From: Candidatus Saccharimonadia bacterium
GTDB lineage: Bacteria > Patescibacteriota > Saccharimonadia > UBA4664
Direction of reading: 5' to 3'
Assembly (NCBI GenBank): GCA_035544015.1
Contig: DATKIP010000012.1
Coordinates: 99,483-163,482 of the forward strand
DNA length: 64,000 nucleotides
Both the position numbers and the translations under genes were made by a program. Each line of letters starts with the position of its first letter. Positions within the stretch are counted from its first letter, which is position 1. The notes below the pieces were generated by a model that saw only the letters and a list, made by a program, of their open reading frames with translations, did no database searches and was not told the origin of the DNA. This document shows, piece after piece, positions 19,339 to 63,383 of the stretch.

Positions 19339-20163
19339 ATGCAAAAGAACCCCGTAGTCAGCTACTACCACACGTTTGAGTCAAGGCTTGGATACAGATT
19401 ATTGGGTGGGGTCAAACACTTTGGCTACTACCCAATAGGCCAAGAAGACCTCCCGACCCTCAAAGCGCAAGAGCTTATGGACGAGCCATTAGCTCAAACA
19501 CTGGCGTTGTCTGACGGAGCAAAGGTGCTTGATGCTGGCTGCGAAGAGGGTGGTGTAGCCCTCTATCTAGCAAAGCACCATCACCTAAATGTAACCGGCA
19601 TTGATTTGCTCGACTTCAACATAGCCAGGGCAAGGAAGCGGGCGGCTAAAGACGAGCTGGAAACCAAAGTCGAGTTTCTTAAAGCCGATTATTCAAATAC
19701 CACCCTACCCGATTCCTCATTTGACGCCATCTATACAATGGAAACCCTCGTACACTCCCCCGATTACACCAAAACCCTTAAGGAGTTTCATCGCTTACTA
19801 AAACCCGGCGGCAAACTAGTGCACTTCGAGTACTCGATGGCAGACAAAATGCCTCAGGATGCCAAGCAAGCACTAACACGGGTTAATAAATTAGCAGCCA
19901 TGCCAGCTTTTGACCAATTCACTCACGGAACGCTTGAAAGCGCCTTGGCAAAAGAGGGCTTCAAAGAAGTAGAATCACGCGACATCACAGAGCGCATGTT
20001 GCCGTTACTGCAAAAGTTCGAAAGAAAGGCCCGACTCCCCTACCAAATCGCCCGATGGCTTAAGCAAGAAAACCATTTTGCAAATGCAATGTCTGCGGTT
20101 GAGATTTACAGACACATTAAGTATTTCAGATACAACATTATCTCAGCAGTCTTACCAAAATAG
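19339..20163 (+). CDS. class I SAM-dependent methyltransferase
   Basis: VLDAGCEEGGVALYLA motif I. Lower GC than the surroundings. Confidence 0.75.
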   Translation: MQKNPVVSYYHTFESRLGYRLLGGVKHFGYYPIGQEDLPTLKAQELMDEPLAQTLALSDGAKVLDAGCEEGGVALYLAKHHHLNVTGIDLLDFNIARARKRAAKDELETKVEFLKADYSNTTLPDSSFDAIYTMETLVHSPDYTKTLKEFHRLLKPGGKLVHFEYSMADKMPQDAKQALTRVNKLAAMPAFDQFTHGTLESALAKEGFKEVESRDITERMLPLLQKFERKARLPYQIARWLKQENHFANAMSAVEIYRHIKYFRYNIISAVLPK

Positions 20164-20231
20164 CGACGTTATTGGCCCTAACAAGCTATTCATCAAACAA
20201 AAAAGCACCTGATTTGAGGTCAGATGCCCTT

Positions 20232-20250
20232 TTGGTGGAGCTGCGGGGAA
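20232..20250. repeat. 19-bp direct repeat identical to the 3' end of the tmRNA gene (displaced att-like copy)
   Basis: TTGGTGGAGCTGCGGGGAA at 20232-20250 is identical to 21069-21087 (the ssrA 3' terminus). Confidence 0.65.
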
Positions 20251-20390
20251 AATCTTGGCACTTGATCATGGAGATGCCGCAGCGTGGCGGTACGCACTGG
20301 GGCCGAAGTTTGAACGATTCAAGTTCACCCACCAAAGATTGCTGTGATAAAAACAGCGAATATTGAGGAATATGCTGCCAAATCTAGTCC

Positions 20391-21007
20391 CTAAGCGACA
20401 AGAAGTCTGGCTGCCTTCTCTATGGAAGCATGGAAGTTACCCGACTCTATCTCAATAACCGGAAAGCCATATTTTCGCGCCTCGTCTGCGTAGAACTTGT
20501 TCCATAGCTGATTGAATGAGGCATAGAGTCGAATTGTTTCTTCATCATATTTGCGAAGCCAGTCATTTGGATTTTTACGAGCATGAGCAAGAATATCTTC
20601 AGTCTGATCAGCAAGGTTAGCAATAAACACCGACTTAAACTCAAAATCTACCTTGGAGAGCTGCTCTGGCAGTATGGCAACCCCTTCTACAATCGCATCC
20701 TTTCCGTCGCGCTGATAATAACCAACGAAATCGAGTACCGACTTCCAGGTTTCTTCGGCTTCTCCCAGCTCATGACCTAGTGCGGCCTGCGGATTATTCT
20801 TTAAGGCGTCGATGTGCTTTTCTGAGCCAAATGCACCACGCTGCACTTTATGAAGATGGGATTTATTTCAGGTGTTGATACGCCTCTCGCAACGGCCCTA
20901 ATTGCATCCGTTGATGCAGCGAGCATTGGCCTCTCTCTCAAGAGAGCATGGATAATCGTAGTCTTGCCCGTTCGGGGAGCACCGCCAATAAAATAAATCT
21001 GTGACAT
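20391..21007 (-). pseudogene. frameshifted P-loop NTPase/kinase pseudogene
   Basis: The Walker A fragment (GGAPRTGKTT, 20801-21007) and the C-terminal 151-aa fragment (20391-20846) are on the same strand in different frames, with the frameshift near 20850-20870. Confidence 0.6.
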
Positions 21008-21069
21008 GCCTTAACAATAACAGATTACAAAAAGAGCCAAGAAACTTGACTCTTTAAGCATAAGAACAT

Positions 21070-21447
21070 TGGTGGAGCTGCGGGGAATCGCACCCCGGTC
21101 CGTCGGGTTACTCGCTCGCGATCTACAGGCTTAGTTTGCTTACATGTCTTAGCCCTCCACCTGTGAGCAAACCAAACGGTGGCGGGAGCAGCTTCAAAGC
21201 TTAGCTGAGGGGCAGAAGCCCAACCCTCAGAGCGTCCCGATGATTTGATACCGGCGAACCCCTACCGGGAATCAGGTGCCGATAGCTTACGTTATTAGGC
21301 GTAAGCGGGGGCGAATGAAGGAGCCTGGAAGGCAGCCTTCACCCGCGCGAAAAAGTTGGCAGTTAAGCTAACTTGTGGAAGCTAACGTTTGCCTACGACC
21401 TGCGCGCATAGCTTGTAAAAGTCCCAACGTCGAGCCTGATCAGCCCC
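21070..21447 (-). ncRNA. ssrA: tmRNA (SsrA)
   Basis: The minus strand reads 5'-GGGGCTGATCAGGCTCGACG... with tRNA-like ends (T-arm GGGG-TGCGATT-CCCC, acceptor ...GCAGCTCCACCA-3'). Candidate tag ORF GCA AAC GTT AGC TTC CAC AAG TTA GCT TAA (ANVSFHKLA*). Confidence 0.8.
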
Positions 21448-21462
21448 ACGATTTACTCCTGT

Positions 21463-21491
21463 ATTCTACCTCAAATCGACCGTTCCAGCAA
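21463..21491 (-). promoter_or_regulatory. candidate tmRNA promoter (TTGCTG-17-TAGAAT on the minus strand)
   Basis: Hexamers at 21486-21491 and 21463-21468 with 17-nt spacing, about 15 nt upstream of the mature 5' end. Confidence 0.35.
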
Positions 21492-21662
21492 CAATCTGTA
21501 CTGGTTCACACCATCCGGGCGACAAAATAAGCATAAGCGTGTTGTACCAAACACCACGATACTCACAAAAACACCCCAGCTCATCCCAAGCTTTTTAGGA
21601 CCCATCACAAAGCCAGGCTCACACCGCCGGCGTAGCATGAGGGGTGTAATGTGGAGGTTACA

Positions 21663-21983
21663 ATGTATCAGCACTACCTAGAAGATGACGGTATGGATCC
21701 TGGTCTTGGGGACCTTGCGTATGACGGCAGCGAGTACCAGCTCGATGAGTTTGGCGAGCGCATCGGCGCCGATGACCTAGCCGAGGAAGATGCGGCCGAC
21801 GAGGAAGAAGCCATGTCCGAAGACGACATGCAGCCCCTCAGCCCCATCGATGATGGTTTTGGCGAGACCCTTAGCCCCGCCGACAATCCCAAACTCGACG
21901 ACCAATTCGACGACGAGGCTCTGCGCGACGAGACCGAGGCGGATTATCCCGGCGGCATCAAGCCCGACGCTACCGACTCCTAA
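21663..21983 (+). CDS. small highly acidic hypothetical protein (DE-rich)
   Basis: ORF with about 35% Asp/Glu. A 13-bp stem hairpin follows at 22025-22060. Confidence 0.35.
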   Translation: MYQHYLEDDGMDPGLGDLAYDGSEYQLDEFGERIGADDLAEEDAADEEEAMSEDDMQPLSPIDDGFGETLSPADNPKLDDQFDDEALRDETEADYPGGIKPDATDS

Positions 21984-22088
21984 AAACCCAAAAACACCCC
22001 GACAATAACCCCGGCATAATCTAGCCGGGGTTATTGCTGCCAAGAGCGTCCCAGCACGATGGTATAATCAAACAAATATCATCCAACC

Positions 22089-35979: not shown

Positions 35980-36028
35980 AATCTGTTGTCGCTATTGTAC
36001 ACCGCGCGCTAAAAATAATGGCATTGCC

Positions 36029-36373
36029 AGACTAGTCATAAGCCGGATTCTGTCGAGGATGATCATCTATCTTGGGTCCACGTTGCCGCGAACCTCATGC
36101 GGTCTGATCGCTCAAACGCGCGAGCAGCGCCCCTTTCGGGATGTTTGAGCCGCCTTGCAGCGGACGGGGTTTACCTCCTCGCCTAGTCACCTAGGCCAGC
36201 TGTGCGCTCTTGCCGCACTCGTTTCACCCTTACCGAGCTTGCGCCCGGCGGTATCGTTTCTGTGGCACTTTCCCTACGGTCGCCCGCGGTTGCCGTTAGC
36301 AACCGTCCTGCTCTATGCTGTCCGGACTTTCCTCACCGACCTTGCAGCCGGCGCGATCATCTTCTAGTCTGAC
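36029..36373 (-). ncRNA. rnpB: RNase P RNA (bacterial type A)
   Basis: The minus strand carries GAGGAAAGTCCGGAC (P4 5' strand), GGTAAGGGTGAAACGAGTGCGGCAAGAGCGCACAG (P10-12 region) and ACAGAATCCGGCTTATGACTAGTCT (P4 3' strand/P1). Confidence 0.8.
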
Positions 36374-37723: not shown

Positions 37724-37799
37724 TGGTCGGGGTGACAGGGCTCGAACCTGCGACCTCACGGCCCCCAGCCGTACGCGCTACCAACTGCGCCACACCCCG
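37724..37799 (-). tRNA. tRNA-Pro (GGG), CCA encoded
   Basis: The minus strand CGGGGTGTGGCGCAGTTGGTAGCGCGTACGGCTGGGGGCCGTGAGGTCGCAGGTTCGAGCCCTGTCACCCCGACCA gives a cloverleaf with a CTGGGGG anticodon loop. Confidence 0.85.
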
Positions 37800-39842: not shown

Positions 39843-40948
39843 TAGCCCTCTCAAAACAAAACCGTCATAAACCATATTTAAACAGCCTTCCGGCAATATA
39901 GCCGGTAAAGGCCTTTTTTGTGTCTTCAAAGGTAGAACGCTGAATATTGGCTACAGCTTGCTTGGTGGTGTTCCAAACATGCTCAATTGGATTGTTGTCA
40001 GGGGCATAGGGCGGCATGGGGATGAGGTGGACCCGCTCCAAGAGTTGGCCTTTGGCTAAGGCTGTTCGAATCGCACGACCTTTGTGGAAGGCGGCATTGT
40101 CCCAGATAATGGCAATCTTCTTGTCTGGGTGGTTTTTCAAGAAGAGCTCGAATGCCTTCAACACCTCTTCCTGGTTTTGCCAGGGCATTTCATACACTTC
40201 GCAGGTGAACGATTTCTGGTTCAAGAACCCGATATAGCTCTGAGCCTCTTTGTCCCGGTCGACTTTGACAATGGTGCGCTTGCCCTTTTTGAGCCAAGCC
40301 CGGCGGGTAATAGCTTCTTGTTCTATCCGGACTTCGTCAACGGCAAACACTTCCCACTCCTTGCTGGTAAGCAGCGGGGCAACTTCAGCATGGATTTCTC
40401 GCATCCGGGCCTCAATCGTAGCCACATTGCGCCTGAGGTCAAAGGTATCCGGGTACTTAAACGACAGATTACTAAACCGTAGGAGGAAATGATATGACTG
40501 CGGAGATTCATACACAATCTCAAACTTGGTCTGGAGGTAGGTTTTGAGCTGGGGTACATCCCAGAAGGCCTGAGGCAAGCCAAAGTCGGAGGGTGGAGAG
40601 CTGAGCGCCTGCTTGACCTCTTGGCGCTGGTCGCGGGTTAGAGGACTGGCGTTGTCATTGCCGGCGTGGCCGGTGAATATCATGCTGAGGCGACTAGTTC
40701 GCCAGGCATTGAGCCAGCTCCCCACGGTTCGTGAGGAGCGGTCTTGGATGTCGCCAATGTCAGCGGATGACATCCCTTTATTCGCCATGAGTACGGCCCC
40801 AGCTTTATATCGTATGAGGATGAGTGGGGAGGTTTTGGCATATTCCTTTAAAAGAATCTTTTCTTCGTTGGTGATATTTGTTTTACGCATTTGCAATTAA
40901 GCGTAACAAAATCTCGAAATAAATGCAGGTTTTGTTTTGAGGGGGCTA
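39843..40948 (-). mobile_element. IS630-family (Tc1/mariner-like) insertion sequence, 1106 bp, with a TA target-site duplication
   Basis: 21-bp terminal inverted repeats TAGCCCTCTCAAAACAAAACC (left) and TAGCCCCCTCAAAACAAAACC (right, reverse complement), 20/21 identical. Flanking TA at 39841-42 and 40949-50. One transposase ORF. Confidence 0.85.
39865..40896 (-). CDS. IS630-family DDE transposase (HTH plus DDE_3)
   Basis: IAIIWDNAAFHKG and PPYAPDNNPIEHVW DDE motifs. Full length, 343 aa. Confidence 0.85.
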   Translation of the reverse strand: MQMRKTNITNEEKILLKEYAKTSPLILIRYKAGAVLMANKGMSSADIGDIQDRSSRTVGSWLNAWRTSRLSMIFTGHAGNDNASPLTRDQRQEVKQALSSPPSDFGLPQAFWDVPQLKTYLQTKFEIVYESPQSYHFLLRFSNLSFKYPDTFDLRRNVATIEARMREIHAEVAPLLTSKEWEVFAVDEVRIEQEAITRRAWLKKGKRTIVKVDRDKEAQSYIGFLNQKSFTCEVYEMPWQNQEEVLKAFELFLKNHPDKKIAIIWDNAAFHKGRAIRTALAKGQLLERVHLIPMPPYAPDNNPIEHVWNTTKQAVANIQRSTFEDTKKAFTGYIAGRLFKYGL

Positions 40949-40950
40949 TA

Positions 40951-41127
40951 CCCGAGCAAGAGGTGCGGCTCCTCCCCCACCCCAATCGCTACGACATCGT
41001 GGTCTTGGTATCCACCGACCGTGCCGATCAGCAATACGCCGACATCCTCCTGGAACAATTCAAGACTGATCACCCGGATGTCAGAATACACCGGCAGCTC
41101 CACGAACCCATTACGCGCGCTCACTAG
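40951..41127 (+). pseudogene. C-terminal fragment of the IS630-disrupted gene
   Basis: In frame with 39600..39842 once the IS and one TA copy are removed. Confidence 0.5.
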
Positions 41128-41175
41128 CTTCAGGCAGAGGCCCCCGGACACCGCGTCCGAGGGCCTCCCGCCGTT

Positions 41176-41808
41176 TTAGAGCACGCTACTTGCCGGCACC
41201 AGCAGCCGCACAATCGCGATCGTCGCCTGCGCCACCCACGGCGCGATAAATTGATACCCGAGCAACATCACCGCCAGCAGCACCACAAACCCGGACTGCT
41301 CTATCCGGTCCATCACCTCGCGCAAGCCCGGCGGCGCCACCGCATACAGCAGCCGCGAACCATCCAGCGGCGGAAACGGAATCATGTTAAACACAAACAA
41401 CCCTACGTTCACGATAATGAGTGCCGCGAAAAAGGTGGCGCCCACCGAGCTAAACGGCAATAGTTGCGCACACAGGGCAAAAAAGCACGCCAACAACAGG
41501 TTGGTAAACGGCCCGGCCAAAGCCACCAACGCCGCACCCCACCGCCCCCAGCGCACCGCCCACGGGTTAAACGGCACCGGCTTGGCCGCCCCAAACACCA
41601 CCGGCGAACCCACCACAATCAAAAACAATGGCAGCGCCAATGTGGCAAACGGATCGATGTGCGCGAGCGGATTGAGCGTCAGCCGGCCCTTATCTTTAGC
41701 TGTCGTATCGCCCAGATAGTGCCCCATGAGCGCATGCGCAAATTCGTGCAGCGTGAGCGCCAGTACCAACGCCACCACCTGGGCCAAAATTTGAATCGGA
41801 TCATGCAT
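41176..41808 (-). CDS. site-2 protease family (M50) zinc metalloprotease
   Basis: HEFAHALMG HExxH within a TM helix, and LDG motif. Confidence 0.75.
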   Translation of the reverse strand: MHDPIQILAQVVALVLALTLHEFAHALMGHYLGDTTAKDKGRLTLNPLAHIDPFATLALPLFLIVVGSPVVFGAAKPVPFNPWAVRWGRWGAALVALAGPFTNLLLACFFALCAQLLPFSSVGATFFAALIIVNVGLFVFNMIPFPPLDGSRLLYAVAPPGLREVMDRIEQSGFVVLLAVMLLGYQFIAPWVAQATIAIVRLLVPASSVL

Positions 41809-41895
41809 ACACGCAATTGTACTATATGCAGTGCCAAATCATTGACTTACCAGATGAAATTAGCTACACTTACCGAGTTGTTTTAAGGATTTGTC

Positions 41896-42141
41896 ATGTC
41901 TTACGCATGCGACATCACGGGCAAGGGCAAGCAGTTCGGCAATAACGTGCCGTTTTCCCAAAAGAAGACCCGCAAGGTCTGGAAGCCCAATCTCCAACCC
42001 AAGACGATTACCATCGGCGGCCAAAAGGTTCGGCTGAAGTTGGCCACGTCCACTATCCGCACCCTCAAGAAATGGGAGCGGGAAGAAGTTGCCAAGCTAG
42101 CCAAGATCGAAGCCGCCAAAGCCGTTCCCGCCGCCGCCTAA
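41896..42141 (+). CDS. rpmB: 50S ribosomal protein L28
   Basis: MSYACDITGKGKQFGNNVPFSQKKTRKVWKPNL. Confidence 0.85.
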   Translation: MSYACDITGKGKQFGNNVPFSQKKTRKVWKPNLQPKTITIGGQKVRLKLATSTIRTLKKWEREEVAKLAKIEAAKAVPAAA

Positions 42142-52180: not shown

Positions 52181-52257
52181 TGGTGGATCCTAGAGGACTC
52201 GAACCTCTGACCCCTTCAACGTCAATGAAGTGCTCTAGCCAACTGAGCTAAGGATCC
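52181..52257 (-). tRNA. tRNA-Val (GAC), CCA encoded
   Basis: The minus strand GGATCCTTAGCTCAGTTGGCTAGAGCACTTCATTGACGTTGAAGGGGTCAGAGGTTCGAGTCCTCTAGGATCCACCA gives a canonical cloverleaf. Confidence 0.85.
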
Positions 52258-53069: not shown

Positions 53070-53147
<78 letters not shown>

Positions 53148-59567: not shown

Positions 59568-60851
59568 TCACTCAAAATATCGCACCGTCCCAAACGGAAT
59601 CTTATCCTGCATCGGATTCTTGCTAGCCAGCACACTGGCCGGCATCAGCCGCTGCTCGCCATAGCGATCGTTGATAGCATTCATTGCCGCCTCAATCCGA
59701 TCCTGTCGCGCATCCTCACTCTCCCACAAATAGAGCTGATCCGACCTCACCGGCTCCAGCTCGTAGGTCGTCATCACGAGCGAACTCACCACCCGACCCG
59801 GCCACTGCTCCAACGAACGGCCAAACAGCTCCAGGGCCCGCGTGTACAGCTGGTCGCCCCGATACGCCGCCGTTTTGTACATCTTGCGCTCATGCCAACC
59901 CCGCGGCCCACCCCACGCCGGCCGGGTTCCCTCAGCCGGCTCCTGCACATACCCAAGCCACAGCATAAACCCCCGCGCCGCCAAATCATTCTTGCGCAGC
60001 CGCCGCGCCACTTTAGCGCTAGCCTTATATAGCAACGTCGCCAGCTCCTCCGGATCGGCCGTCCGGTGCTCCAGCACGTAGTTGCGCCCCACCGTGCGAA
60101 TCCCAAACGCCACCTCAGTCTCGTAGCCCCGCAGCCTCAAATACCAATGATGCCCATTCACGCTCCGAAACACCCGCTTACTCAGCGTCCGCTCGCTCGC
60201 ACGGTAAAACTCCAGCGGCGTATAAATCCCCGCATCACCCAGCCGCCGCTCCAGCCGCCGCTTAATGTACGGCAGCTCCACCAGCCGCATGAACCCATAC
60301 ACCGCCTCCAGGTTGGTGTGGTCGATCACGTACAAGCCATCCGGCTTCATAAACCCAGCCGCCACTTTGGCCAGCCAGCGATTAGGCGCGATACCCACGT
60401 TCACCGTCATGTAGTCACCCACCTCCTCGCGCACCCGCTGCTTGATCTCGCGCCCAATATCCTCCAGCGGCCGCCCCTTCAGCAGCCCCGCCATGCCCCG
60501 AAAATCAATAATCCCCTCATCCACCGATTTCATTTGCGTCACCGGCGAGTAGCTCTCAAAGATTCCACGTATCAGCCGCGTCACATGCTGATACTTCGCC
60601 GCGTCGCTCTCGCGCATCACAAAATTCGGCGCGATCCGCTTAGCCTCACCGTTGCGCGTACCCAGCTTAATCCCCAGCTGCTTGGCTTCGTGCGACGCCG
60701 CAATACAAATAGCGTAGTCATTCAGCCGGTTCGTCACCCCCACCGGCCGGCCCCGCAGCAACGGATTCGCCTGCTGCTCGGTCATCGCAAACGCCGAGTT
60801 CAGATCCAGGTGCATCACCTCCGGCCGCGCCGGGTTGGGTTTAAGCTCCAT
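59568..60851 (-). CDS. umuC: UmuC-like Y-family translesion DNA polymerase
   Basis: N-terminal HLDLNSAFAMTE...LRGRPVGVTNRLNDYAICIAASHEAKQLGIKLG is collinear with the UmuC DVN-type active site. GGAGAA SD. Confidence 0.8.
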   Translation of the reverse strand: MELKPNPARPEVMHLDLNSAFAMTEQQANPLLRGRPVGVTNRLNDYAICIAASHEAKQLGIKLGTRNGEAKRIAPNFVMRESDAAKYQHVTRLIRGIFESYSPVTQMKSVDEGIIDFRGMAGLLKGRPLEDIGREIKQRVREEVGDYMTVNVGIAPNRWLAKVAAGFMKPDGLYVIDHTNLEAVYGFMRLVELPYIKRRLERRLGDAGIYTPLEFYRASERTLSKRVFRSVNGHHWYLRLRGYETEVAFGIRTVGRNYVLEHRTADPEELATLLYKASAKVARRLRKNDLAARGFMLWLGYVQEPAEGTRPAWGGPRGWHERKMYKTAAYRGDQLYTRALELFGRSLEQWPGRVVSSLVMTTYELEPVRSDQLYLWESEDARQDRIEAAMNAINDRYGEQRLMPASVLASKNPMQDKIPFGTVRYFE

Positions 60852-61279: not shown

Positions 61280-61540
61280 TTAGCCATAAAACGCCTCCTT
61301 GAGCCGCCACTCCAGCGTCTCCGGATCGAGCTCCAGCCGAAAGGCCGTCTCGCCGGCCGAGAAGCTAAAGATATGCACCCGCTTCACTCCGCGCCGTTCC
61401 GGGTGGTACAAACCCATGGTCTCAAGCCGCCAGCGTCGACCCCGCCACTTCATGATGTGCGGCGTCACTCGCATCATTCCGCGCGGCCCCGGCGCAAACG
61501 ACGCCAGCACACTCACGATGTCGTCGCATTCTTCGCGCAT
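61280..61540 (-). CDS. small hypothetical protein (86 aa)
   Basis: Strong SD GAAGGAGG 6 nt upstream of the ATG. Confidence 0.45.
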   Translation of the reverse strand: MREECDDIVSVLASFAPGPRGMMRVTPHIMKWRGRRWRLETMGLYHPERRGVKRVHIFSFSAGETAFRLELDPETLEWRLKEAFYG

Positions 61541-61636
61541 AACCGGCCTCCTTCGTCTTGATATTATACCGAACTAAAGCCGAACGCAAGCATGAGCAAA
61601 GTCAGACCAACGCGCCAGGGGATTTCCCGCATATCG

Positions 61637-61683
61637 CAAAACTACCTATCACGCGAATACTACTCAGCTGATAGGTAGTTTTG
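61637..61683. promoter_or_regulatory. 15-bp perfect inverted repeat CAAAACTACCTATCA-N17-TGATAGGTAGTTTTG overlapping the stop codon of the nadD-GNAT gene
   Basis: Read directly from the sequence. No U-tract follows on either strand. Confidence 0.4.
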
Positions 61684-62731
61684 CGTGACGCATAAACACG
61701 GTCGGAATCACATCCGAGCTCGAAGTCTCACCCGTAAGTCCAAATCCATACCGCTCGTAGAAAGCGATCGCCCGCGCATTATACGAAGCCACCTCCACGC
61801 GCACCTCAGACACCCCCTCCAACCAACCCATCACCGCCTCCATCAGCCTATGCGCCGCTCCCGTGCCGTGATACCGCGACAGTATGTATAACGCCGTCAC
61901 CTCGCCGACACCATCCTCCCGGCGCTTACCGCAGCCAAATCCCACCACCCGGTGATCATCTTTGGCCACCACCACATACTCTTCATGATTGCCAATAATG
62001 TCGCGCCATTTAGCGATCCGCTCCGGCGATCGAAAGCCCTTCACCCGCTCCTCAATCGCCGCCCGAGGAATCCCCAGCGCCTCATTCGGATACGTCGCCA
62101 GCCACGCCTCATGCTGCACGGCCGCGATCCCCGCGGCATCATCCGGCACCGCCTGTGCCACGCCCACATACAATCCCCGCTCCCGAATGTACGCCAGCAC
62201 CCGCGGATCCAACTCACTCGGTCGCTCACCCGCCGCCAGCTGCCCCTGCACCACCCGCGACGACGCGGCCGCATGCTCCGCCACCTCAAACACCTGCACC
62301 TGCAGCCGCGAGTCCATCGCCGCCTCGGGCGCTCCAGCTCGCCGCGCCACCGCAAACCGCGCTCGCTCCAGCACCGGCTCCTGGTCTTCCCACCGCGCCA
62401 TCGCCGCCAGCACATCCGCCCCTACAATAAACACGAACTCGGTACCCGGATACGCCCCCGTCAGCCGATCAAAATCCGCCATCCGGTGGCGCACCACCCC
62501 CACATCATCGGGGTCACCCTCGCGCATCCGCCGCTCGCCCTCCAACGCCAGCTGCACCATCGCCACCCGGTCGGCCGCCGGCACCACCCCCGTCTTGTGA
62601 CCCGGAGCCGGATTCACCAGAAACCACACCTCGCGCAAATCACACGCACCCATCGCCGCCCGGGCCAGCGCCACGTGCCCCAAATGCACCGGGTCAAACG
62701 TTCCGGTCAGCAACCCCACCCGACGGCGCAC
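61664..62731 (-). CDS. nadD: fusion protein: nicotinate-nucleotide adenylyltransferase (NadD) N-domain plus a GNAT N-acetyltransferase C-domain
   Basis: N-terminal GLLTGTFDPVHLGHVALA (HxGH) and a NadD core of ~190 aa. C-terminal GNAT motif HRVVGFGCG...YHGTGAAHRLMEA...ARAIAFYERYGF. Confidence 0.75.
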   Translation of the reverse strand: MRRRVGLLTGTFDPVHLGHVALARAAMGACDLREVWFLVNPAPGHKTGVVPAADRVAMVQLALEGERRMREGDPDDVGVVRHRMADFDRLTGAYPGTEFVFIVGADVLAAMARWEDQEPVLERARFAVARRAGAPEAAMDSRLQVQVFEVAEHAAASSRVVQGQLAAGERPSELDPRVLAYIRERGLYVGVAQAVPDDAAGIAAVQHEAWLATYPNEALGIPRAAIEERVKGFRSPERIAKWRDIIGNHEEYVVVAKDDHRVVGFGCGKRREDGVGEVTALYILSRYHGTGAAHRLMEAVMGWLEGVSEVRVEVASYNARAIAFYERYGFGLTGETSSSDVIPTVFMRHAKLPIS

Positions 62732-62732
62732 G

Positions 62733-63383
62733 CTACACCCGCTCGGGTCGCACGCGGCTCACGATGAGGTCATAAATCTCTCTCGCCGCCTGCTCGCTTT
62801 TGCCGGTCTCATTGATCACCCATGTATAAAAACCCAATTCCTCAGCCCGCGCAATCTCCCGCCTAGCCTGATCGAGCCGGCGCTCAATCGAAGCCGCGTC
62901 GTTCGTGCCGCGCTTCTCGATCCGCCGCCGCAATTCCGCCAGATCGTCATCGAGCGAACCAGCCGTCGGCCGAATAAAAATAAACAGCTCATCGGGCAGC
63001 ACCTCATGCACAAACTCGGCCCCGTTCACCTCAATCTCCGTCATCACCGTCTCGCCCCCCCGCATATGCTCCAGAATCGGCTCGATCGGCGTACCGTAAC
63101 GCGCACCCTCGGTCAGCCCATTGGCCTCCAAAAACGCCCCCGCCCTCTCCTGAGCCTCAAATTCCTCCCGCGTCACAAAGGTGTACTTGTGGTGCAGCAC
63201 CTCGCCCGGCCGCGGCTGCCGCGTAGTAGTCGACACCGACAGCCACAATTTCTCATCGGCAAACCCCAGCATCTCGTCGATGACCTTGCCCTTACCGGCG
63301 CCCGCCGAGGGACCCGAAATAACCACCAAGCGACCCGGCAAGCCGTCAAACTTGCCCCTTAAGTTCTCGATGCGCATATCCAT
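62733..63383 (-). CDS. gmk: guanylate kinase
   Basis: P-loop VVISGPSAGAGKG and the Gmk core (YTFVTREEFEAQERAGAFLE...YGTP). Confidence 0.75.
   Translation of the reverse strand: MDMRIENLRGKFDGLPGRLVVISGPSAGAGKGKVIDEMLGFADEKLWLSVSTTTRQPRPGEVLHHKYTFVTREEFEAQERAGAFLEANGLTEGARYGTPIEPILEHMRGGETVMTEIEVNGAEFVHEVLPDELFIFIRPTAGSLDDDLAELRRRIEKRGTNDAASIERRLDQARREIARAEELGFYTWVINETGKSEQAAREIYDLIVSRVRPERV

Follow-up and report, generated by a model that had tools for sequence, protein, structure and literature searches.

A probable lineage-specific fusion of NadD with a GNAT acetyltransferase domain in a Candidatus Saccharimonadia bacterium

A stretch of 64,000 nucleotides from a Candidatus Saccharimonadia bacterium (assembly GCA_035544015.1, contig DATKIP010000012.1, positions 99,483 to 163,482; hereafter the window) carries a gene that encodes, in one frame, a complete NadD, the nicotinate/nicotinamide mononucleotide adenylyltransferase, followed almost directly by a complete GNAT acetyltransferase domain. 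What is new here is the combination of two well-known domains. The reading favored here, with reasonable though far from full confidence, is that of a real lineage-specific fusion, in which two independently active domains are produced as one polypeptide from a gmk-nadD operon.

The fusion gene occupies positions 61664..62731 of the minus strand. According to the list of open reading frames (ORFs) and the sequence itself, it is a single unbroken ORF of 355 amino acids (aa) plus a stop codon, with a GTG start. Residues 1-188 of its product form a complete NadD (62168..62731, minus strand) and residues ~190-351 a complete GNAT domain (61679..62164, minus strand), and there is almost no linker between them. 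Pfam placed both domains in this one frame, with CTP_transf_like at residues 8-145 (E 1.3e-15), Acetyltransf_1 at residues 238-330 (E 7e-17), and further GNAT models at residues 240-348 (Acetyltransf_10) and 251-330, the GNAT E values ranging from 7e-17 to 8e-12. Every one of these domains scored above its gathering threshold, and the E values are far beyond chance. An AlphaFold2 model of the 355-aa protein was built from an alignment (A7) that holds NadD relatives over the first half and GNAT relatives over the second. It reached a mean predicted local distance difference test (pLDDT) score of 90.7 and a predicted template modeling (pTM) score of 0.81, and both the NadD fold and the GNAT fold are complete in it; pLDDT falls below 50 only at residues 352-355. 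Foldseek matched the two halves of the model to solved NadD and GNAT structures with TM-scores of 0.8-0.87, and no solved chain in the PDB spanned both halves. A preliminary description of this DNA had claimed a single ORF at these coordinates that joins a complete NadD with an HxGH motif to a complete GNAT domain, and each part of that claim holds; the strand, which it did not give, is added here. In the public record, the protein (HVQ43598.1, from a Candidatus Saccharimonadia metagenome-assembled genome) is named only "GNAT family N-acetyltransferase." As this name omits NadD, metabolic reconstructions of NAD salvage would miss the nadD gene of this organism.

The N-terminal half is covered from end to end by the models and structures of its family. 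NCBIfam NadD equivalog models extend over residues 2-188 (5-198 of 201 model positions), and residues 3-188 align with residues 4-189 of 191 in Bacillus anthracis NadD (3hfj), as they do with other solved NadD enzymes. Because of this end-to-end alignment, the NadD domain can be regarded as complete, ending at the family-typical ...YIxxxGLY, here ...YIRERGLY. CTP_transf_like scored 58.3 bits against a cutoff of 21 bits, and Foldseek retrieved about 45 PDB chains of NadD with TMt values of 0.80-0.87. The HxGH nucleotidyltransferase motif is present as H16-L17-G18-H19 (62675..62686, minus strand) within GTFDPVHLGH (residues 10-19), and H16, G18, and H19 are invariant in the alignment of the clade (A5). 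All 54 positions that are invariant in this alignment are present in the fused protein. The second signature of NadD enzymes, of the I-S-S-T-x-x-R type, contacts the phosphates of ATP. In the fusion it reads A-S-S-R-V-V-Q (62254-62274, residues 153-159), as compared to S-S-S-L-L-R-E in B. anthracis NadD, so that both serines are retained, an Arg stands three positions earlier, and a Gln lies opposite the B. anthracis Arg. The close relatives P0002-P0006 also carry A-S-S-R (A-S-S-R-x-x-Q), and S157 and S158 are invariant in A5. The NadD half remained below every curated NadD equivalog cutoff, with a best score of 87.8 against 150 bits (NCBIfam NF000840 and others) and 79.4 against 112.45 bits for TIGR00482. 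Despite this, sequence and synteny identify it as an NadD orthologue, with 53-69% identity to the stand-alone orthologues in the same gene order. Its identity to clade members (53-64%) is ordinary for a group whose members are 47-79% identical among themselves, and this argues against an acceleration of the NadD half after the fusion.

The C-terminal half scored well above the gathering cutoffs of Acetyltransf_1 (62.2 against 20.7 bits), Acetyltransf_10 (50.1 against 23.6), and Acetyltransf_7 (45.8 against 27). In the AlphaFold2 model it forms strands at residues 190-193, 251-258, 261-270, 275-283, 309-315, 331-338, and 343-350 with helices between them, which is the complete seven-strand, four-helix GNAT fold, mostly at pLDDT values above 90; Foldseek matched it to structures 8osp and 3fnc with a TMt of ~0.8. 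Motif A, which binds the pyrophosphate of acetyl-CoA and follows the pattern (Q/R)-x-x-G-x-(G/A), is intact as R286-Y-H-G-T-G-A292 (61856..61876, minus strand), and its G291 is invariant in the family alignments A2 and A6. Stand-alone GNAT relatives of 168-185 aa (for example, P0082, P0095, and P0098) are colinear with the fused domain over its whole length and 48-59% identical to it. The nearest of them is P0082 (59%), which has an AT-rich upstream region of its own. Despite this distance, the fused domain retains 10 of 10 invariant and 10 of 10 near-invariant positions of its subfamily, which is marked by the motifs W-L-x-T-Y-P-N-E and V-A-S-Y-N-x-x-A-I-x-F-Y. The RimI equivalog TIGR01575 is the nearest named model, yet the score was 37.9 bits against a cutoff of 86.4. 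The nearest PDB sequences, with weak E values, are uncharacterized GNATs and N-terminal acetyltransferases (Naa30, ARD1, and Naa50 at 1e-4 to 1e-3). Judged by its sequence, the C-terminal half thus is a member of the GNAT superfamily that stands outside RimI and every other named subfamily and that is closest, in a loose sense, to RimI/N-terminal-acetyltransferase-like enzymes.

In the GTDB species genomes, most members of this GNAT subfamily belong to Patescibacteria (Saccharibacteria, Parcubacteria, and others) and a few to Actinobacteria and Chloroflexi, and the fusion partners of the subfamily are diverse. Members are fused to an APH-type kinase (L034 3956-5413), to a TehB-like methyltransferase (L039 3899-5092), to a Nudix domain (P0183), to an N-terminal domain of no named family (L041 3497-4492), and, in three cases, to a second GNAT domain (L078 3431-4528, L081 3959-4984, and P0132). 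In addition, an APH gene lies 26 nucleotides (nt) upstream of the second-closest GNAT relative (L090 2-1980). An association with APH was hence met twice, a hint of a small-molecule substrate, and the fused GNAT may act on a small molecule. Because the partners of the subfamily are so varied, the partnership with NadD is best seen as one more opportunistic fusion, carrying no evidence of a link to NAD metabolism.

Among the sequences searched, the NadD-GNAT fusion is a singleton confined to one lineage. The searches were judged on the best matches listed, and very distant NadD-GNAT fusions could fall below these lists. When 5.8 billion clustered proteins were searched by word index with the full-length query, 81 matches were listed, and PF01467 together with PF00583 occurred only in the cluster of the query itself (P0001); the remainder were NadD proteins that stand alone and are 195-251 aa long, or NadD joined to an HD, metallophosphatase, or RsfS domain. 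A HMMER scan of 1.84 billion representatives, in which all long or junction-spanning matches were inspected, returned no NadD-GNAT protein among the best 150. In a two-family profile search, the query was the sole two-domain protein among the best 120; this search also brought up NadD proteins closer to the query (65-69% identity, 182-192 aa), each of them stand-alone. Several candidates were rejected as NadD-GNAT proteins on inspection: P0155 and P0156 are NadD-HD proteins; P0143, P0220, and P0229 join NadD to unrelated tails; P0150, P0109, and P0171 are GNATs without a partner, the starts of which were called too far upstream; and P0132 and P0183 are GNAT-GNAT and GNAT-Nudix proteins, respectively. 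The two genes were not found as neighbors either. No GNAT was present within 2.5 kb of nadD at any of 68 loci from JGI metagenomes, no NadD within 4 kb of a GNAT of the subfamily at any of 80 loci from GTDB species genomes, and no GNAT of the subfamily beside nadD in the syntenic relatives of the window (loci L002-L005, L161, and L162). The two marks of a functionally informative (Rosetta-stone) fusion, recurrence in several lineages and neighborhood as separate genes, were therefore not seen for NadD-GNAT among the matches listed and the loci compared. No relevant description of an NadD-GNAT fusion, or of NadD in Saccharibacteria, was found in the literature searched. The architecture had been called uncommon on the strength of the sequence, and the searches agree with this, as none of them listed a second case.

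Comparison with the unfused relatives shows where the GNAT segment lies. The gene order nrdR / gmk / nadD / 86-aa gene / dinB is common to the window, L002-L005, and L162, and the relatives have a stand-alone nadD; in L161, nrdR-gmk-nadD is seen before the contig ends ~290 nt past nadD. The gene upstream of nadD is gmk, encoding guanylate kinase (62733..63383, minus strand; ORF list and Pfam Guanylate_kin), and the gmk-nadD order is conserved in the relatives. In the window, the TAG stop codon of gmk lies one base ahead of the GTG start codon of nadD, and the two genes are probably cotranscribed and translationally coupled. The unfused NadD proteins of the syntenic relatives end in ...ERGLY plus 1-11 residues, and at the 68 JGI metagenome loci all clade members stop 1-6 residues after "LY." The DNA that follows nadD varies from relative to relative, with spacers of 154, 184, and 520 nt (the last in L002) and, in L161, 287 nt or more that include a 36-codon ORF. 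The corresponding regions are window 61541-61663, L002 4631-5149, L005 4622-4774, L161 4550-4836, and L162 2975-3157. Because this DNA differs in every relative examined, the site 3' of nadD seems to tolerate insertions. The flanking genes on either side of the variable region are conserved, and the window alone has a GNAT there. The 520-nt spacer of L002 was considered as a possible site of a decayed GNAT remnant, since tblastn aligned 37 residues (G-F-G-L-T, 16.9 bits), and this candidate was rejected, as 45 of 115 control windows scored as high, the score of the family hidden Markov model was negative, and the local alignment of the DNA remained under that of shuffled controls.

The two ends of the GNAT segment can be located precisely. 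At the junction, alignments A6 and A7, the junction DNA, and the model leave V189-G190-V191 (62159..62167, minus strand) as the sole residues without a clear family; the last NadD helix spans residues 176-185 and the first GNAT strand residues 190-193 of the AlphaFold2 model. The GNAT domain thus begins three residues past the GLY that closes NadD, and compared to P0082 it is short only of its own start region, the first 6-8 residues. At the other end lies a strong hairpin (61635..61685, minus strand; RNA folding energy of -39.2 kcal/mol, z -6.2), the 5' arm of which encodes A-K-L-P-I-S, with the stop codon in the loop. A consensus terminator scan, which does not admit a loop of this length, missed the hairpin, and folding confirmed it. 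Its arms, AAAACUACCU and AGGUAGUUUU, match the terminator that directly follows the stand-alone nadD in L005, and the hairpin is homologous to that terminator and represents the ancestral terminator of nadD. The last four residues of the protein (352-355), which are disordered in the model, come from this terminator. Taken together, the hairpin and the junction therefore place the GNAT coding sequence exactly between the last codons of nadD and nadD's own terminator, as a segment that itself lacks both a start region and a stop codon.

The composition of the segment bears on its age. The third-position G-C skew of the GNAT half is +0.52, within the range of the neighboring minus-strand genes (+0.35 to +0.70), and its third-position G+C content (GC3) of 0.68 is slightly under that of the neighbors (0.75-0.80). 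The GNAT segment has therefore been in place for a time sufficient to acquire the composition around it. A recent horizontal transfer or a chimeric join was rejected on the same grounds, namely, the extreme strand bias shared with the neighbors and a GC3 that is only slightly lower. As far as can be judged from the conserved positions, both halves look functional.

The following course of events would account for these observations. A stand-alone GNAT gene of a subfamily typical of Patescibacteria may have inserted between the last codons of nadD and the nadD terminator, at the cost of its start signals and its stop codon. A single polypeptide would now be made from the gmk-nadD operon, probably coupled in translation to gmk. 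Its N-terminal half most likely still adenylylates nicotinate mononucleotide (NaMN) or nicotinamide mononucleotide (NMN), yielding nicotinate adenine dinucleotide (NaAD) or nicotinamide adenine dinucleotide (NAD), and its C-terminal half most likely still moves an acetyl group from acetyl-CoA onto an acceptor substrate by N-acetylation. The two activities are probably independent, and the gain from the fusion would lie mainly in coexpression and in the saving of signals in a compact genome. Because it is seen in one lineage only, the fusion looks like a local gene-insertion accident rather than a conserved regulatory device. Several points weigh against this account. Both activities are predicted from sequence and model. 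The fusion is present in one population only, and selection on the fused state is therefore not measurable. The pTM of 0.81 and the linker of ~3 residues hint at a fixed mutual orientation, possibly beyond passive tethering. Finally, the genome may hold a second copy of nadD or of the GNAT gene outside the 64-kb window, within which none was found.

Two alternatives concern the junction itself. One is that, in another frame, nadD terminates roughly 8 codons past Y188, that the GNAT gene starts at GTG189 or GTG191, and that a one-base error in the consensus merged the two. The +2 frame past Y188 does run into a stop 8 codons on, which would give NadD a tail as long as is usual among the orthologues, and the codons of V189 and V191 are in-frame GTG codons preceded by a purine-rich stretch, GGAGCGGGGA. 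The identical 355-aa product is nevertheless found on the 251-kb NCBI contig, on a 16.6-kb Logan reassembly of SRR8863102, and on a 110-kb JGI contig, which were produced with different software; there is no long homopolymer at the junction, and consensus indels are rare in short-read assemblies. The weight of the agreement is reduced by the Logan contig being 100% identical to the window across 6.3 kb, because of which the three assemblies probably derive from the same reads or population though the software differs. Hence, the possibility of a frameshift, for which a check had been proposed, is largely countered by the agreement of three assemblers on the sequence, although a single indel in shared reads could have merged overlapping genes; overall, an artefact of this kind is highly improbable. 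The other alternative accepts the ORF and holds that internal initiation at GTG189 or GTG191 releases a free GNAT alongside the full-length protein, so that the fusion would be of little consequence. Both codons are possible internal start codons by their sequence context, as they mark the boundary between the domains and follow a GGGGA/GGAG-like sequence at distances of 6 and 12 nt, and the fusion gene itself starts with GTG. However, in all relatives the conserved E-R-G of NadD accounts, through its codons, for the purine-rich stretch, which need not be a ribosome-binding site, and internal initiation is considered very unlikely.

The remaining alternative is that the halves are coupled, with the GNAT acetylating NadD or another component of the NAD pathway, or with NadD serving the acetyltransferase as a nucleotide-sensing regulatory module for ATP, NaMN, or NAD, a role comparable to that of the ligand-binding domains in bacterial protein acetyltransferases of the Pat type. 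Either form of coupling would tie the status of acetyl-CoA to the supply of NAD. The near absence of a linker and the pTM of 0.81 would be consistent with a fixed interface in the model; a mechanistically linked partner of NadD has a precedent in the YqeK HD domain (PMC9426524); and one relative in the GNAT subfamily (P0183) has a Nudix hydrolase as its fusion partner, and this fold is often associated with NAD/ADP-ribose metabolism. Against this stand the restriction to a single lineage, the lack of clustering of nadD and GNAT in 80 GNAT and 68 nadD loci, and the other partners of the GNAT subfamily (APH kinase, methyltransferase, and GNAT), which are unrelated to NAD. Moreover, the alignment held no paired sequences, so that the AlphaFold2 interface carries no coevolution signal and the pTM may reflect the short tether only, and the NadD domain does not show accelerated change. 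Coupling in this general sense is unlikely, if conceivable. The more specific proposal of a working regulatory unit, in which ATP, NaMN, or NAD bound at the NadD site controls the acetyltransferase, or the GNAT modifies NadD in cis by acetylation, is distinctly unlikely; if true, a single protein would directly connect acetyl-CoA status with the supply of NAD in an ultra-small epibiotic bacterium, and this would be a regulation of an acetyltransferase not described before. The preliminary description had suggested acetylation-based regulation of NAD biosynthesis or a moonlighting function. Its account of the fusion stands, but the functional part found no comparative support, given the single lineage, the unfused orthologues, and the absence of paired genes at all 148 loci.

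Under the favored reading of two independent activities, a bifunctional protein would be a further case of reduced Patescibacteria genomes building multidomain enzymes, here through the insertion of one gene at the 3' end of another with a housekeeping role. The steps of the fusion can still be read from the orthologous loci that are unfused, from the terminator that they share with the fusion, and from the variability of the insertion site. Were the domains shown to be coupled, and only then, the protein would bear on the link between acetylation and NAD metabolism, a case that the present evidence makes unlikely.

Some further features of the window were noted. Downstream of the fusion gene, a block GCTCATGCTTGCGTTCGG...GTTCGGTATA(A/G)TATC(A/G)AGA (window ~61557-61600, minus strand) is well conserved in the window, L002, and L005; within it, GTTCGGTAT is directly repeated, and a similar repeat, GTTCGGTA, occurs in L162. 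The block lies upstream of the 86-aa ORF (61280-61540), which is conserved and has no Pfam family, and this ORF is followed by the Y-family polymerase gene dinB (59568-60851); the block may be the promoter or operator of a damage-response operon. Across the window, the GC skew of the plus strand lies between -0.11 and -0.34 in all but two 2-kb bins, 20001-22000 and 40001-42000, where it is about -0.06; the first of these bins holds the tmRNA gene (21070-21447). The third-position (G-C)/(G+C) is +0.35 to +0.70 for minus-strand genes and -0.47 to -0.56 for plus-strand genes. This strand bias, which is unusually strong for a bacterial genome, tracks the DNA strand and not the orientation of the genes. 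The window also contains ordinary housekeeping RNAs, namely, a class A RNase P RNA (36023-36372), tRNA-Pro(GGG) (37724-37799), tRNA-Val (GAC) (52181-52257), and tRNA-Val (CAC) (53071-53147).

Compared to known systems, the fusion protein shares with stand-alone bacterial NadD (B. anthracis, 3hfj/2qtr; B. subtilis, 1kam) an end-to-end alignment over 188 residues, the fold, the HxGH motif, and the ...GLY terminus. It differs in its scores below the equivalog cutoffs, in the A-S-S-R-V-V-Q form of the second signature, and in a C-terminal extension of 167 residues. The nearest known layout is the NadD-YqeK (HD) fusion of mycoplasmas and other Firmicutes, examples of which were also among the matches of this work (P0035, P0048, P0155, and P0156). 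The likeness is one of layout only, an N-terminal NadD with a second catalytic domain at the C terminus. NadD-YqeK recurs in most mycoplasmas and is accompanied by strong clustering of the nadD and yqeK genes, and the fused HD domain was demonstrated to proofread side products of NadD (mBio 2022, PMC9426524). In contrast, NadD-GNAT is a singleton without gene clustering. With the stand-alone members of its GNAT subfamily, the C-terminal half shares 48-59% identity, colinearity over the whole domain, and all conserved positions; unlike them, it is made as a C-terminal extension of NadD, lacks a start region and stop codon of its own, and ends in four residues read from a terminator. Another type of architecture, a GNAT joined to a ligand-binding domain, is that of regulated protein acetyltransferases of bacteria such as Pat/YfiQ and the cyclic AMP-regulated mycobacterial Pat, whose N-terminal domain is a dedicated sensor and whose architecture is conserved in many species. 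The order of a nucleotide-binding domain followed by a C-terminal GNAT is the same in both, whereas the N-terminal domain of NadD-GNAT is the orthologue of a housekeeping enzyme and its architecture is unique among the sequences searched.

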